From the NCBI GenBank assembly GCA_013265495.1, contig MU057615.1:186001-250000 (forward strand): a stretch of DNA of 64,000 nt. The letters run 5' to 3'. Shown here one piece after another: positions 12,066 through 63,299 of the stretch. Positions within the stretch are counted from its first letter, which is position 1. Every line of letters starts with the position of its first letter. This stretch comes from Vicugna vicugna (Eukaryota). The position numbers were made by a program, and so were the translations under genes. A model generated the notes under the pieces. The model saw only the letters and a list, made by a program, of their open reading frames with translations, was not told the DNA's origin and did not search any database.

Positions 12066-12195
12066 GGGGGAGGGCATAGCTCAGTGATAGAGTGCATGCC
12101 TAGCACGCACAAGCTCTTGGGTTCAACCCCCAGTACCTCCATTTAAAAAAATTAATAAATAAACCTGATTACCTTCCCCCACCCCCAGAAAAGAG
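12066..12195 (+). mobile_element. tRNA-derived SINE, Vic-1-like (camelid)
   Basis: ggggagggcatagctcagtgatagagtgcatgcctagcacgcacaag...gggttcaacccccagtacctcca with Pol III A/B boxes, then A-rich tail and aaacctgattaccttccccc. Confidence 0.8.
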
Positions 12196-28884: not shown

Positions 28885-29382
28885 TGCTCCTCATGGTTCC
28901 TGGATGGGCGGGTAGGCTGGCGCTGGTGAGCTGAGGAGGGTAGCGTTCACCTCTGTGGGTGTTACCTTGATATGAGATGGGGCCGCGAGCATGTCTGGCA
29001 TCTGTCTCATTCTCAGCAGGCCAGCCTGGTCTCATCCATCTGGTGGTGGTTGGGGGTTCCCAAGAAGCAGCAAGACAGGCCAGTCTCAAGCTCCTTCCAA
29101 GCCTCTGCTGCTGTCACATTTGCTATAAGATACATGGCCAAGTCCAGAGTCAGTGTGGGAGAGCTGGCCAAGGCCATGGATGTAGAAACTGGGGTTCTTA
29201 TGGCTGTTTTTGCAAGTAACTTACCATAGTACGTGACACATTTTCTCCAAGAATTACTTACCACTTAAAAGTTTTGCTGATGGGCACACAGAAATTCAAT
29301 ATAGCAGGTTTTCCACTTGATAGTAAATTTGGATAAAAATGTTTGTGAACTATTAAAGTGAGTACTCAGACAGTGAAACTTT

Positions 29383-30471
29383 TTATTTTATTCATTTATT
29401 TATTTAATTAAACTATAGTCACTTACAATGTGTCAATTTCTGGTGTATGGCACAATGTCCCAGTCATGCATATATATACATATATTTGTTTTCATATTCT
29501 TTTTCATTAAAAGTTATCACAAGATATTGAATATAGTTCCCTGTGCTCTACAGGAGAAATTTGTCCTTATCTATTGTTATATGGTAGTTAACATTTGCAA
29601 ATCTCAAACTCCCAAATTTATCCCTTCCCACTCCCTTTCCCTGGTAACCCTAAGGTTGTTTATTATGTCTGCAAGTCTGTTTCTGTTTTGTAAATGAGTT
29701 TATTAGTGTCCTCTTTACTCTTTCTTTTTTTTTAAGATTCCACATATGAATGGTATCATAAGGTATTTTTCTTTCTCTTTCTGGCTTACTTTACTTAGAA
29801 TGATGATCTCCAGGCCCATCCATGTTGCTGCAAATGGCACTATTTTATTCTTTTTTATGGCTGAGTAGTATTCCATTGTATAATATACCACACCTTCTTT
29901 TTTCCTGTAAATTTCTAGTACTTTTGCTTTTTTGTATATATATATATTTTTTTTAATTGAAGTATAGTTAGTTTAGAATGTTGTGTCAATTTCTGGTGTA
30001 CAGCACAATGCTTAAGTCAAACATGAACATACATATGTTCATTTTTGTATTCTTTTTACTGTAAGTTACTACAAAATATTGAATATAGTTCCCTGTGCTA
30101 TACAGTATGAACTTGTTGTTTATCTATTTTATATATATTAGTATCTGAAAATTCAGTTTGTCCCTTCCTATCCCTTTCCAATCCCCTGGTAACCATAAGT
30201 TTATTTTCTATGTCTGTGAGTCTGTTTTTGTTTTGTAAATAAGTTCATATGCCTTTTTTTTTTTTTTAGATTCCACATATAAGTTATATCATACGGTATT
30301 TTTCTTTCTCTTCCTGGCTTACTTCACTTAGAATGACATTATCCAGGCCCACCTATGTTGCTGCAAATGGCATTATTTTATTGTTTTTATGGCTGAGTGT
30401 TGATCCATTGTATATATACCACAACGTCTTTATCCAGTCACCTGTCGGTGGACATTTAGGTTACTTCCATG
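29383..30471 (-). mobile_element. Composite of two young L1 3' ends in tandem
   Basis: Two similar L1 3' UTR copies (~29383-29896 and ~29947-30471) inside one 17-bp TSD tcagacag(t/a)gaaacttt. Confidence 0.85.
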
Positions 30472-30666
30472 TCAGACAGAGAAACTTTGGATAGCAAGGA
30501 TAGATATATTTTTAAGTGAAAAACCTGAAAGTGGCAGAAACTGTGTTTAAGAACAAGTGTGATGAACCCCTTTGGATAACTTTGTATTTTACTTTTGACA
30601 CTTTAACCTCCCGTAAGGCATTTTACCTCAAATTGTAGTGATTTTCTGTGTCTTCACTTGGTGTCT

Positions 30667-31139: not shown

Positions 31140-32044
31140 GTGAGCATCACACACAAGGGCTTGCTAGGAGACGGAGTGACCGCGAAATCAGGAAGCCCAC
31201 CAAGGTGTGGGGCCTTGCTCCGGCTGTGAAAGAGTTTGTGCAAATTGGCAAAGTAAACCGCCGCCTTATTGTTCAGAAGGGGGCATGGAAGGAAAATGCT
31301 CCAGCAGAGAGAAGGGGGGAAAAACGCTAGAGTGGGGAGAGGAAGTGCTTGAGTGAGTTGCCATCAGCCAGGGTGGGCGCTGGAAACAGCTCCGGCCCGG
31401 GTCGGGCCCCGTGGACTTTTATGGGAGGCTTCGCCATCATGTCCTCCTTCTGGGTGTGATGGAGGCAATCGCCTTGTCCTCCATCTTCATATGGGCTTTT
31501 CTTGTTGTTGTCTTGGCAACTGTCAGCTGTCATGGCGCTGGTGGGTGTGTCACTTAGCAACTAATACATCACAGTGCGTCTATAATGAGGCTCCGGGTCC
31601 ACTGGAGGTCAAATCTTCCACCTTGGACCCTGTAGGTTCTAACCGGTTCTTGTTTCTTCTCCTGAGACTTAGATAAGAGTCATTAGTTTGTAGTTGAGGG
31701 AGGGGCAGGGGTATGATCCTGGGGGCAACAGCCTTGTAACAAAAAGGAAAAGTTGCTTTTAATCAGAATGCTGGCATTTTGGTGGACCCAGTGTTCCCCC
31801 AAAAAACCATCTCTGAAGATTCTCCTCCGGCATAACCAAGAGGCAGGGCTTGGGGGGGCCTTAGTTTCTGCAGAAGAGCTTAAAGATATTGTTATGTGTG
31901 TTCCCTGAGGAGGAGCCAGGACCCTGCCCCAGGGCTGCATGATTGTTTCTTGACAGTTCCCCCTCATTTCTGCATTCTCTCCCTTCCCTGATTAGCAAGT
32001 GTTTGAATCTGCCCTTTGGAACTCAGAGAAAGTCAAGGAGGCTG
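31140..32044 (-). mobile_element. Adjacent ERV1-type LTR fragments (~31140-31660 and ~31735-32044)
   Basis: Shares motifs with the 55/60-kb LTRs (gtcatggcgctggtggg; ggaggtcaaatcttcc...ggttctaacc); second piece begins tgtaac. Confidence 0.6.
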
Positions 32045-33243
32045 TGTTGTTGGTGATTAGGTTCTTGTCTTGTGGCAGAAAGAATTTAGAGACTAGATAG
32101 AGAGGTTAAGAAAGTAAAGTGGGAAAAAAAAAAAAGATTTGAGCCCAATAGAAGGCACTGATAAGACATTGGGGCTTTGAGTATTTTATTTCAGTGATTA
32201 TGAAACTGAATACCGTATGGCACATATTTCCTCATTTAGGAGATTTTTAATTATATTATGTTGGATCTAATCATAAAATCCTTAGGATTTTAAAATAGGA
32301 AGGAATCCAAGTAGTCAACCCTTACCTCCCTCCACCTTTTTCATCAGACTACTGACCAACTTCATTTGAAAGCTGCTAATGGTGGGGAGGTTTGGGAATT
32401 TGTATGAAAACAAGAGATACTCATAAAAATTCAACCACCAAAGGAAGGTATAGAGTCAAAAGTAAGATGCATCAATCTATTGGTACCATTTCTCCAAGAA
32501 TAACAATTTTAAAAACTTTTTTATAAATATGTATGGGGTTTTATTTTACAAAAATGTTATCACATCTACATATTATTTTTTGTTCCTTCTTTGCAGAGTA
32601 AAATTTTTGATGCAAAATTTATAAATTTTTTAATGGATCATAACTTTCATGTCAAATTAAAGAACTTAGCTTAAAAAAAAAGAAAAGTGGGGATTTATTA
32701 AGGGATAGAATGTTGTCAAGGGGAGAGCGGGCAGACTCGGGTGAGCAGCTGCCCCGAGTTTCTTTGCAAGTTGGTTACACAGAGTGTAAAAATGAATGGA
32801 TGGAATATTCATTGGAAAGGGAAGGGTTTGGGGTCATATTCCTTGATTTTCATCCCAGCTCTGTCTTCCCAAAGGGAGGAGAGATTTTTGTCCTTATTTA
32901 GTCTGGATTGGAAGTGTCATGGCGTCAGTGCAGGATGGGTACTTCTAATCTGCAAGGCTGATTTTATAGTAGTAAGGGCATACTGAGCAAAAGGTTACAT
33001 TCAGATGTTGGAGACTCCTGTCTTTTCCTCCCTTTCTTTGTGGGCCTCCAGGTTGTCACCCCAAAATATGTGATCACTTACAGCCCAGAGGTTCCTGCTT
33101 TTCTCTGCCCAGGGACCCCTGTGGTTTACGTGATGCGTGGTTTCCTGCATTTGGCCCATGCTCCCCCTCTCATGCCCAGTTCCTGCCATTTGGTCTGCAT
33201 CCCCCTTTCTCTGCTCGTATCTAGCTATTTGCCTGCTCTAATA
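32045..33243 (-). mobile_element. ERV1-type solo LTR with an internal ~560-bp retroposed insert
   Basis: tgttg...taata termini, exact 4-bp TSD gctg (32041-32044 and 33244-33247), reverse polyA signal tttatt at ~32694. Confidence 0.8.
32124..32683 (+). other. L1-mediated retroposed insert (putative orphan 3' transduction)
   Basis: A12 at the 5' end, non-LTR AT-rich body, ATTAAA at 32656-32661, A-tail at 32673-32681, TSD aaagtggg at 32116-32123 and 32684-32691. Confidence 0.7.
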
Positions 33244-33714
33244 GCTGGGGAAGCTTTCAGGCTGTGTTTAAGGTTTGGGGGTATGGGTGACTTCATACAT
33301 GAGTATATGATGACGTTCACAGGATGAGCAGGACCCAGGCTTCAGCTCAGTGTCATTTTTTCCCTCAACGTCCAGGACTCCCAAAGTGTGGGTAGCTTGG
33401 AGGAAAACCCCAGAGCCCAAAGTTCTCATGTGGAATCCTCTGACTTTATATGAAAGAAATGAGGTTTTCCCCGATTTAGCAGAATCCCAAGCATGCACAT
33501 GATAGTTCCAATGATGAATTGTGAGTTGAAGTAAACTTAAAAAAAAAAAGCTATTTATAATAAAACATTTTATTTTGTCATACCAGAAGAAATAATCATT
33601 TTTATCCTCTCTCTAAAAAGAATAATGTCATAAAAATCATTGTCATAGAAAAGTGCAACCAAAGAATGAGCAGTCAAAAGACGTAGGAGACACCAGTGCT
33701 CCTTGGCAGCCCTT

Positions 33715-39962: not shown

Positions 39963-40183
39963 GAATACCAAATTGATATATTTTTTGCTCAGACCTGGAC
40001 TGACAGTCGCCTTCGGTTCAACAGCACGATGAAAATACTTACTCTGAACAGCAACATGGTGGGGCTAATATGGATTCCAGATACAATCTTCCGCAATTCT
40101 AAAACTGCAGAGGCTCACTGGATCACCACCCCCAATCAGCTCCTCAGAATTTGGAATGATGGGAAAATCCTTTACACCTTAAG
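39963..40183 (+). CDS. GABRG3: GABA-A receptor gamma-3 subunit, internal coding exon (exon 4, 221 bp)
   Basis: Acceptor ctctgtttcAG|GAATAC, donor TTAAG|gtaaga. Open frame [73 protein letters not shown](R), with the WxPD motif of Cys-loop receptors and gamma-3-type residues. Confidence 0.97.
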
Positions 40184-48530: not shown

Positions 48531-48544
48531 GTAGCAATGCATTC

Positions 48545-49400
48545 TTTTTTTTTTTAATTGAAGTACACAGTTACAGTGTGTCAATTTCTGGTGTACAACA
48601 CAGTGTCCCAGTCATGCATATATTCATTTTCATATTATTTTTCATTAAAGGTTATTACAAGATATTTAATATAGTTCCTTGTGCTATACAGAAGAAATTT
48701 GTTTTTTTTTAATGTATTTTTATATATAGTGGTTAACTTTTGCCAATCTCAAACTCCCAAATTTATCCCTTCCCACTCCCTTTGTGCTGGTAAACATAAG
48801 ATTGTTAGCTGTATCTGCAAGTCTGTTTCTGCTTTGTAGATGAGTTCATTAGTGTCCTCTATTTTTCTTTCCTGGTTTTTTTTTTTTAGATTCCACGAAT
48901 GAGTGATAAGATATGGTATTTTTCTTTCTTTTTCTGGCTTACTTCACTTAGAATGACAATCTCCAAGTCCATCCATGTTGCTGCAAATGGCATTTTTAAT
49001 TATTTTTAATGGCTGAGTAGTATTCCATTGTGCAAATATACACAATTTCTTTATCCAGTCATCTGCTGATGGACATTCAGGTTGCTTTCATGTCTTGGCT
49101 AGTGTATATAGTCAAAACTACAATGAGGTATCACCTCACACCAGTGAGAATGGCCATCATTCAAAAATCCACAAATGCCAAATGCTGGAGAGGCTGTAGA
49201 GAAAAGGGAACCCTCCTACACTGCTGGTGGGAATGCAGTTTGGTGCAGCCATTGTGGAAAAAAGTATGGAGATTCCTCAAAAAACTAAAAACAGACTTAA
49301 CATATGATCCAGCAATCCCGCTCCTGGGCATATATCCAGAGGGAACTCTAATTCAAAAAGATGCATGCAGCTGAGTGTTCATGGTGGCACTATATACAAT
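48545..49400 (-). mobile_element. Young L1 with 5' inversion
   Basis: Antisense 3' UTR 48545-~49111 joined to a sense ORF2 C-terminus ([16 protein letters not shown]...[23 protein letters not shown]) ~49112-49400. Confidence 0.88.
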
Positions 49401-50349
49401 ACAGTGAATCCGTGATTGATTTTTTATTATCTGGGAATAGAGCCAAGACAGCCCAGCTCTTTATGGGTCCATGAGCAGCAGGCTTGGGTAAGGCTTAAAT
49501 GTGCTGGGTGGACGTGCACATCCCATACTTTCAGATCATTTCCCCTCTGTGGCTGACCAGGAGCTGGAGAGAATCAGGTGACTACGTTTTCATCTCCTTT
49601 ATTGGAGCCGTGCCAGTCAGGCAGAGGTTGTGGCTTTGAGGACAACGCGTGTCCTTTGAACTTGAATTAAGAGGAAAATAGTTGTGGAGAAAGGGCAGCA
49701 CCTCTCTTCAGGGTTCTGTGTTTGACACCGAGTTGACATCAAGCGGCATATTTCCCAAGAACTTAGCCCGCTGGGGCCTTGAGTCATCATCTGTGAACAA
49801 TGTGACCTGTCCTGAGGGGACGGGGGTGGGGAGCGTCGCTCCGTTCTCCATCCGCCAGGCTTATTCTGACTTAACACGCTCCTTTGTGCGCGTGTGCTTG
49901 GGGTGATGGAGCCGGAGGGGGGGAGCCGGAGGGGGGGGACTCGCAGGCCTGGTTTAGGTGACAGGTTTTCTTAATAATCTTAGTACCCTAGCAACGTGAC
50001 GTGATGCTTTGTTTCCGTTCTTATGGGTCGGATGCACGCTTTGAACATCAGTACAGATGTGTTTTGCTATTTAGTGTGTCTCTTACAACTCTTATTCCAA
50101 CACTAGACTTTCTAAAGAAGTTTCACTTTATTTAAAGAAGCCCCATAGTGAAAAGTTAATATTGGAGAGAACTGAGTATCTGAAACACCCTCTGCATTTA
50201 GCTGAATTAAATGCTGTTGACCTTTGAAAGACTATATAATTTTTACGATAAAATTATTTTGAACATTATGTCAAAATCTGTAAGTATTTATGAAGGAATT
50301 TCAGGCCACAGATTGGCGCTTTCTTTGTACATGAGTTTATTGACTAACT

Positions 50350-56650: not shown

Positions 56651-56747
56651 TTATTTACTTACTTATTTAATGGACGTACTGGGGATCGAACCCAGGACCT
56701 TCTGCGTGCAAAGCATGTGCTCTACCACTGAGTTCTACCCTGTACCC
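56651..56747 (-). mobile_element. tRNA-derived SINE, Vic-1-like (camelid)
   Basis: Reverse complement gggtagaactcagtggtagagcacatgctttgcacgcagaaggtcctgggttcgatccccagtacgtccattaaataagtaag. Confidence 0.8.
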
Positions 56748-61038: not shown

Positions 61039-61318
61039 ATTTAATTTTTTTTTATTGAGTTATTGTCAGTTTGCAATGTTGTGTCAGTTTCTGGTGCACA
61101 GCACAATTCTTCGATTGTACGTGAATATATATATTCAGTTTCATATTCTTTTTCATTGTGAGCTACTACAAGATACTGAATATATTTCCCTGTGCTATAC
61201 AGTATTAACTTGTTTATCTATTTTATATATACCAGTCAGTATCTGCAAATCTCAAACTCCCAATTTATCCCTCCCCACGCCTCGGCAACCACAAGTCTTA
61301 TTCTATGTCTGTGAGTCT
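61039..61318 (-). mobile_element. Young L1 3' end
   Basis: 15-bp TSD ggagaacag(t/c)atttt at 61024-61038 and 61319-61333. Confidence 0.88.
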
Positions 61319-61789
61319 GGAGAACAGCATTTTGAGTATTGGGAAGCTGTCAAGCTCATGATGGTGGATACAAGTTTTCCAAAATTCTAATGTCAACTTG
61401 AAGTCTCAAAATTTAGCATTGGCAACAAATATTGGCAATTGTTTAACTAGAAGTGATAGACTCCCTTCAGTCATTTTCAAGAAAATGTCTACCAAACACC
61501 CAAGTCTGAAAATAACCACAATTTGTCTACCAGTTGTTCTTCCAAGTGAAAATGCTACTTCATGAGAGACGTTTGGCCCTTTAGCACCTTGGGTTTAAGG
61601 CTGATTGGAGATGAACAGTGTAGATACATTCTGAATTCTTTCTGGGAACTGCTTCACTGGGCAGGGGTCTTCTCAGCTCTAGGAAGTGTTATTTGGGTGC
61701 AAATCAAGGTGAGTGGAGATGGAAAAGGAAGTGTGAGGAGGAGGGCTTGCCATCAGGAGCAAAGCAAACAGTAAGTCCTGAGGGTGAGA

Positions 61790-62572
61790 GTCAGAAGTCC
61801 ACAGATGATAAATGCTGGAGAGGGTGTGGAGAGGCGGGGACCCTCCCAGACTGCTGGTGGGAATGTCGCTTAGTGTAGCCGTTATGGAAAACAATATGGA
61901 GATTCCTCAAAAGACCAAAAATGGACTAACCATATGATCCAGCAATCCCACTCCTGGGGAAACTTAGAATCCAGAGGGAAACTTAACTCAGAAAGACACC
62001 TGCACCTCAGTGTTCATAGCAGCACTGTTTACAATAGCCAAGACATGGAAACCACCTAAGTGTCCATTGACAGATGACTGGATAAAGAAGTTGTGCTGTA
62101 TTTATACAATGGAACACCACTCAGCCATAAAAAATGATAAAATAATGCCATTTGCAGCAACATGGATGTCCCTGGAGAATGTCATTCTAAGTGAAGTAAG
62201 CCAGAGAAAGACAAATACCATATGATGTCACTTATATGTGGAATCTAAAAAGAAAAGACAAATGAACTTATTTAAAAAACAGAGACAGACTCTCAGACAT
62301 AGAGAACAAACTTGCGGTTACCAGAGGGGAGGGGGGCATGGGAAGGGATAAACTGGGAGTTCGAGATTTGCAGATACTGACTGATCTATATAAAATAGAG
62401 AAACAAGTTTATACTGTATAGCACAGGGAACTATATTCAATATCTTGTAGTAGCTCACGGTGAAAAAGAATATGAAAATGAGTATATGTTTATTCATGCA
62501 TGACTGAAGCATTGTGCTGCACACCAGAAACCGACACAGCATTGTAAGCTGACTAGACCGCAATAAAAAAAA
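61790..62572 (+). mobile_element. Young L1 ORF2 end plus 3' UTR with poly-A
   Basis: Peptide MFIAALFTIAKTWKPPKCPLTDDWIKKL...MPFAATWMSLENVILSEVSQ; AATAAA and A-tail. Confidence 0.92.
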
Positions 62573-63299
62573 ACGAAGTGGCACACCCTCAACCCAGAGG
62601 GAAGCTGAGCCCCGAGCCAGCCGGTCTGCCTGAAGCCCTTTACCCCTGCAGGGTTTACTGAGGTCCAGAAAAGAAAAGAGACGTCAGAGCACAGGATATG
62701 TGATAAATGAGCCACTGGATGAACATTTAAAGAATGCAAGGAGGAAGTACTGCATAGATATGGTTTAATCCGCACTCAAACACATATATCAAGAGCCTTC
62801 TATGGGTGAAATGTGGCACCATCTAAAAGTGATTTTTTAAAAAAATTTTTCTCGTGAAGCATGCAGAAATGTCGGAGGCCCTGGGTGCAGCATGCTCTGA
62901 AAGCTTGTGGGTTTGGGCCCCAAAGCTCCATGAAGGGCTAGCTCTGAGCCCCAGTTTACAGAGTGATGCAGTGCAGAGGGCCACTTCTCAGGGGTCCTGG
63001 TAGAAGTGTCTGGGGACTCCTGCACTGGAGCTGTTACTTGGTTGGGTGGATACCTTAGATCCAAGAGCTGCAGTGACACCTGATGGTGGATGAGATACAC
63101 TGCAAGGTCTTTTTGTGGGCAGGGAAGTGTGGGGATGAAGCTGCAGAGAGGCACACTGGGTAGGAGGGAGGCCCCAGGCTGTCTTCCCCTCCGGGACATC
63201 ACAGAGGCTTCCTGGTCACAAGCTGGCCCCACCTCACAGAGGTGCCCCAAACGCAGTGTGAGCTGGGCCCGCCTGAGGTTGCACTGGCATGCGAGTGGT

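Follow-up and report, generated by a model that had tools for sequence, protein, structure and literature searches.

An ancient AT-rich insertion in a vicugna LTR: a candidate orphan L1 3' transduction with a second copy elsewhere in the genome

One long terminal repeat (LTR) in the genome of Vicugna vicugna is interrupted by a stretch of AT-rich DNA with a run of A at each end, which raises the question of where this DNA came from and how it was put there. The locus lies in a window of 64,000 nucleotides (assembly GCA_013265495.1, contig MU057615.1, positions 186,001 to 250,000), and all positions below are those of the window. The original prediction, made from the letters of the window, was that the insert copies a distant locus and is the product of an orphan L1 3' transduction, in which an L1 transcript reads through into its 3' flank and only the end of the source element and the flank are inserted.

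The host is a solo LTR on the minus strand at 32045-33243, recognised by the 4-bp direct repeat that flanks it (32041-32044 and 33244-33247), by a minus-strand AATAAA at 32694-32699 and by its high depth in public sequencing runs. Without the insert it is 631 bp long. It is a member of a high-copy family, whose summed depth runs to thousands, compared with about 9-14 in single-copy contigs. From the 4-bp duplication, the anatomy and its likeness to other LTRs, we take it to be of the ERV1 type. The longest family pieces, a selection among those listed, have diverged by about 15%, which fits an LTR older than the insert. The host LTR is itself enclosed by an older repeat (31500-32044, and 33244 onward). 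Past 32044, copies of this enclosing repeat carry other sequence (101 and 96 contigs among the listed loose ends), and this continuation is a poor match to the window after 33247; there may have been a deletion, or the boundary may lie elsewhere.

Contigs from public runs were used to look for the empty site and for other copies. Twenty-four runs with seven organism codes matched, of which 20 held part of the stretch and 15 held half or more of its words, about 2 billion contig letters altogether. Four of the 24 were aligned to 31960-32860 at 80% likeness: X1, the best DNA run; X14, a lower-ranked DNA run; and two small-share runs, X18, which is RNA, and X16, which is RNA by guess. Contig counts refer to the rows listed, with a further 43 difference rows, 34 joints, 660 loose ends and 5023 pieces beyond them.

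In all four runs the LTR-family contigs omit 32124-32691. Among those listed, 33 contigs in X1 and 35 in X14 have loose ends at 32121 and continue like the LTR after 32691, and several of the listed joints lead from 32121 or 32123 to 32716-32728 with the intervening LTR letters in place. Family copies thus run directly from 32123 to 32692, and the possibility that the segment belongs to the LTR consensus falls away, as judged from family contigs rather than a consensus. The empty site that was to be expected in other LTR copies is there, and the net insertion is 568 bp (32124-32691), where about 560 bp had been estimated. An assembly artefact or chance was rejected, since contigs of X1 cross both junctions, with 0 differences at the 5' one (32001-32199) and 3 at the 3' one (32593-32785), and an X14 contig crosses the 3' junction with 1 difference.

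The insert reads on the plus strand from a run of twelve A (32124-32135) through a non-coding body of 537 bp (32136-32672) to a run of nine A (32673-32681). The positions first given for these features all hold, including an ATTAAA polyadenylation signal at 32656-32661, 11 nt ahead of the second A-run, and the flanking aaagtggg at 32116 and 32684. The body has a GC content of 30.5%, which agrees with the description of AT-rich DNA interrupting the LTR, and the LTR flanks have about 43-53%. The body holds one CpG and stop-free frames of up to 53 aa. No AATAAA or ATTAAA hexamer other than the one at 32656-32661 occurs in the 537 bp; a hexamer at such a distance occurs in 7% of shuffles, and taken alone the signal is weak evidence.

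In the preferred model the insertion is flanked by a 16-bp target-site duplication. The left copy (32108-32123) is preceded by TT and ends where the LTR-family contigs depart from the window, to return at 32692. The right copy (32676-32691) matches it at 14 of 16 positions without gaps, and the last 8 bp are exact; in a search for the 16-mer at 32108 with at least 14 of 16 matches, on both strands of the window, the site at 32676 was the one other match. The right copy had been explained as the left copy minus gtaa. Two substitutions are preferred over this 4-bp deletion, because the two genomic copies of the insert described below are about 10% apart. Models with 8-bp and 13-bp duplications are also possible. 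The proposed L1-endonuclease-like left flank stands: in the 16-bp model the site is TT|AAGA, and in the 8-bp model the nick would be at GT|AAAG. The nine A appear to be a decayed 3' tail that merges into the A-rich beginning of the right-hand copy, and are partly assignable to the duplication; the remaining tail is A3 in the 16-bp model and A3 to 11 nt across models. Cited passages of PMC10830420 give target-site duplications of 12-18 bp, within which the 16-bp model falls, and those of PMC13009371 describe transductions with two poly(A) tails and a polyadenylation signal 10-30 bp upstream of the tail. An A11 run at 33528-33549 also has a lead-in like the insert's 3' end (17 of 20 letters), which is probably chance.

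The insert has a second, single-copy locus in the genome, about 91% identical, in both DNA runs. In X1, two contigs cover 32176-32441: one, of depth 9.14, has 0 differences from the window, and the other, of depth 8.5, differs by 23 substitutions over 265 bp and by 1 gap. The corresponding pair in X14 covers 32176-32551; the contig of depth 11.1 has 2 differences, and that of depth 13.9 has 36 substitutions over 375 bp and 3 gap letters. The second copy therefore differs from the window locus by 8.7% (X1) or 9.6% (X14) in substitutions. This removes the objection that no second genomic copy would exist, and bears out the proposal that the insert copies a distant locus, in that a unique second copy is seen over 406 of the 537 bp (32146-32551). 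A shared contig break at 32593/32622 suggests that it extends to 32622. No second copy was seen at 32124-32145 or at 32623-32672, and at 32643 this locus alone is present in X1 and X14, among contigs from which those matching human DNA had been left out; because such contigs were dropped, the gaps prove nothing.

When depth is modelled with two copies, and with fitted ends and depths for the unlisted contigs, the model comes within 1.2 units in 12 of 13 bins per run and under-predicts the last bin in both DNA runs. That bin, 32642-32672, has a depth of 14.5 against a modelled 8.0 in X1 and 26.8 against 7.8 in X14; the excess is absent from X16 and X18. [quoted passage not shown] Over the insert, depth is 13-48, against a range from hundreds up to tens of thousands in the LTR, and no high-copy repeat of at least 80% identity lies inside it. 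At 80% likeness its depth is that of two copies, and there is no L1 body in the insertion, a statement that refers to repeats other than very old remnants. Parts of the body look to us like decayed MIR and L1M. In each run, one or two other, unrelated sequences match a short AT-rich stretch at 32603-32636, as deduced from depth and gap tables; this stretch looks like an old L1M remnant. Searches of the 64-kb window with blastn and nhmmer found no second copy there, and none of the repeated L1-like 3' ends in the window matches the insert. In metagenome scans a 23-mer of the insert gave 0 matches, and a 17-mer gave 75 loci, all chance, the best being 20 bp exact and the longest alignment 34 bp.

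The duplication, the TT|AAGA site and the ATTAAA together make an L1-type target-primed insertion highly likely. As for the RNA that was inserted, our best reading, held at slightly better than even, is an ancient orphan 3' transduction from a putative source L1. Transcription by Pol II would have passed the poly(A) tail of a retroelement and continued for about 540 nt into the flank, giving a polyadenylated RNA that ended at the ATTAAA. L1 ORF2p would then have made a nick at an A-rich site immediately downstream of the poly(A) signal of the antisense LTR. Priming on the new tail, it would have copied the flank and broken off within the tail of the source element; a second-strand cut would have left the 16-bp duplication, and both copies would have drifted about 10% apart. 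Which of the two copies was the donor is something we infer.

Transduction explains the A12 at the 5' end directly, as truncation within the source element's tail, where a chance fall at an A-run would be rare. Elsewhere in the window, A12 starts at 10 of 128000 positions (0.00008); a chance 5' end at A8 would take 0.0006 of positions, and one at A6, if the run has since grown, 0.002 (259 of 128000). Five of eight features of orphan L1 3' transductions are present: the empty site with its duplication, an endonuclease-like site, a polyadenylation signal, a unique distal locus and the lack of an L1 body. A rough calculation of the odds for transduction spans 0.43-0.96 on assumed inputs, which are guesses except for the prior. 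Our confidence is not set higher because a passive repeat tail in a host transcript would look identical, and because a five-letter repeat hints at a more complex junction: the letters after A12 (32136-32140) are the same as those after the right duplication copy (32692-32696; p about 0.002, uncorrected), which the transduction model leaves unexplained.

The close rival, overall somewhat short of even chances, is a retrocopy of a host transcript. In its simpler form, which is unlikely but has a serious share of the probability, L1 acting in trans would have made a 5'-truncated copy of a host Pol II transcript (a 3' UTR, a lncRNA or an intronic RNA that used the ATTAAA as its polyadenylation signal), and A12 would be an internal A-run, possibly a passive SINE or L1 tail. 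Cited parts of PMC4862182 give such retrocopies the same hallmarks as transductions, and report that TIGER calls with little L1 signature proved to be retrocopies. Monoexonic processed pseudogenes outnumber orphan transductions by 216 to 48 in 1,019 humans in the portion of PMC12350158 cited, and many short pseudogenes match 3' UTRs only according to an extract of PMC4509998. The second copy is also colinear over 32176-32551, with 3 gap letters and no skipped intron, like a single exon. Against this, truncation would have to fall exactly at an A-run, which is the case for 0.0001-0.002 of positions.

The other form of retrocopy, which we consider improbable, has an A12 that was absent from the donor and was made at the junction. 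The enzyme might have jumped to the poly(A) of another RNA or added A without a template; or poly(A) alone might have been inserted into a longer duplication of 21 bp, with its final five letters as microhomology. This form would account for the five-letter identity, although this match was noticed post hoc and is weak, and an extra event is needed. Template-switch chimeras are described in the available part of bioRxiv 10.1101/2025.02.02.635956, and cited passages of PMC10830420 have ORF2p adding non-templated bases and jumping templates, so that a 5' A-run without a source tail is possible; an addition of 12 non-templated A is without precedent in the passages cited.

An origin other than target priming is very improbable. 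It would be a templated repair insertion at the DNA level, a capture carried by the LTR, or a duplication of the whole LTR-plus-insert locus that gave the second copy. A short 3' tail (A3 in the 16-bp model) and a second copy whose ends lie outside the visible range would suit it, but the duplication, TT|AAGA and an ATTAAA at the right distance would all have to coincide. With two copies only, no LTR subfamily carries the insert. Contigs of the second copy do not extend past 32643 into the LTR, and among the longest pieces listed none reaches far into the left LTR, though filtering could hide one. Pol III read-through from a SINE was rejected because runs of four or more T are Pol III terminators and the insert body has 11 of them.

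The age of the insertion was estimated from a relative. An X16 contig crosses the 3' junction (32313-32831) with 17 substitutions, and an X18 contig covers 32094-32358 with 9 substitutions and 15 gap letters, which extends 30 letters to the left of the junction, one fewer than is required of a bridging contig, and 42 letters to the left of the point where the A-run ends. These contigs are orthologues of the LTR-embedded copy, 3.3% diverged. In X18 and X16 this orthologue has a depth of 2-8, and at the positions covered the 12 listed letters specific to the second copy are all absent; with incomplete cover and low-depth RNA contigs, this is uninformative for either copy. Among the listed sites in the insert that the relative covers, 12 differences are private to the second copy, 6 are private to the relative and 5 are common to the relative and the second copy against the window. 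The divergence of the second copy is 3.0 times that of the relative (interval 1.8-5.0), and since the insert is present in the 3.3%-diverged orthologue, the event appears to be about three times older than that split. The insertion was probably made before the crown of the camelids, with the clade presumed. The camelid tribes split 11-25 million years ago in the section of PMC4884201 cited, and if the relative belongs to the other camelid tribe, as we infer, the insertion would be 33-75 million years old (central values, with wide limits).

Orphan L1 3' transductions, which were reportedly described by Solyom et al. in 2012, are the closest known system. The cited passages of PMC13009371, PMC12350158 and PMC4509998 describe them, like the insert, as unique distal DNA with no L1 body, a duplication, an endonuclease-like site and a polyadenylation signal 10-30 nt before the tail, and the 537 bp of the insert fall between the median orphan lengths given in those of PMC13009371 (335 bp somatic, 968 bp germline). 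Unlike the cases described there, which are human and polymorphic or somatic, this insert is ancient, apparently fixed and non-human, and begins with a bare A-run; its source element is putative. Monoexonic processed pseudogenes and 3' UTR-only retrocopies, as far as the quoted parts of PMC12350158, PMC4509998 and PMC4862182 describe them, have all of the insertion-site hallmarks and the single colinear block, but an A-run at the 5' junction is unexpected for them, and an exonic donor of the insert is hypothetical. Portions of PMC13756887 on dogs, where some 3' transductions are 'parentless', and of PMC4862182 on chimpanzee, orangutan and macaque show the process outside humans, with donors that often have no full-length L1 at the source, as in our reading of the insert; the dog and primate events are recent and partnered with L1 sequence, unlike the insert. 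Events of this kind are already known in humans, other primates and dogs. No camelid report of an orphan transduction or of such a retrocopy was found in the literature searched, which most subscription papers lie outside.

The importance of the insert is modest, and it opens no new mechanism. It had been proposed to tag a once-active source retroelement; because the event is ancient, with copies about 10% apart, its value as a tag for a recently active element is lower. Should an L1 tail precede the donor, the insert would mark, with a date, one source L1 that was active early in the camelid lineage, and would be a neat example of truncation within the tail of a source element. Its presence or absence could also be used as a marker for the clade.

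A coding exon of a GABA-A receptor gamma subunit is present on the same strand as the insert, which is 7.3 kb upstream of it. This exon (39963-40183, plus strand, 221 bp) matches Pfam PF02931 with E=2e-17 and has AG/GT ends. Its best PDB matches are gamma-2 (59 of 74 residues, counted by hand), the ESM Atlas leaves the gamma subunit unnamed, and we take the gene to be GABRG3. A Pfam scan of 150 of the 181 frames of at least 75 aa gave this exon as 1 clear match and 2 others below the cut-off; frames internal to the insert are too short to be included. Upstream exons of the gene were not found in the window, and the insert is probably within the intron upstream of the exon, in sense orientation. 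An acceptor-like AG at 32595-32596 follows a pyrimidine tract, with ATTAAA 76 nt on, and the insert would separate the poly(A) signal of the antisense LTR from the U-rich tract downstream of it. It is most doubtful that a fossil transduction from an Eocene-age source has in this way turned into a putative alternative last exon of the gamma-subunit gene: the relative's insert is 3.3% diverged, with changes within the acceptor-like pyrimidine tract and no sign of splicing or constraint.

Rfam gave two tRNA-like matches alone in the window, both far from the insert. They are weak matches to the tRNA model (34 bits), at 12070-12141 on the plus strand and 56671-56740 on the minus strand, and are probably the heads of tRNA-derived SINEs. 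One interspersed repeat has about ten copies in the window that are 70-82% identical, among them 29379-30473 (two in tandem), 48541-49401 and 61044-62581, and is presumably an L1 3'-end family.
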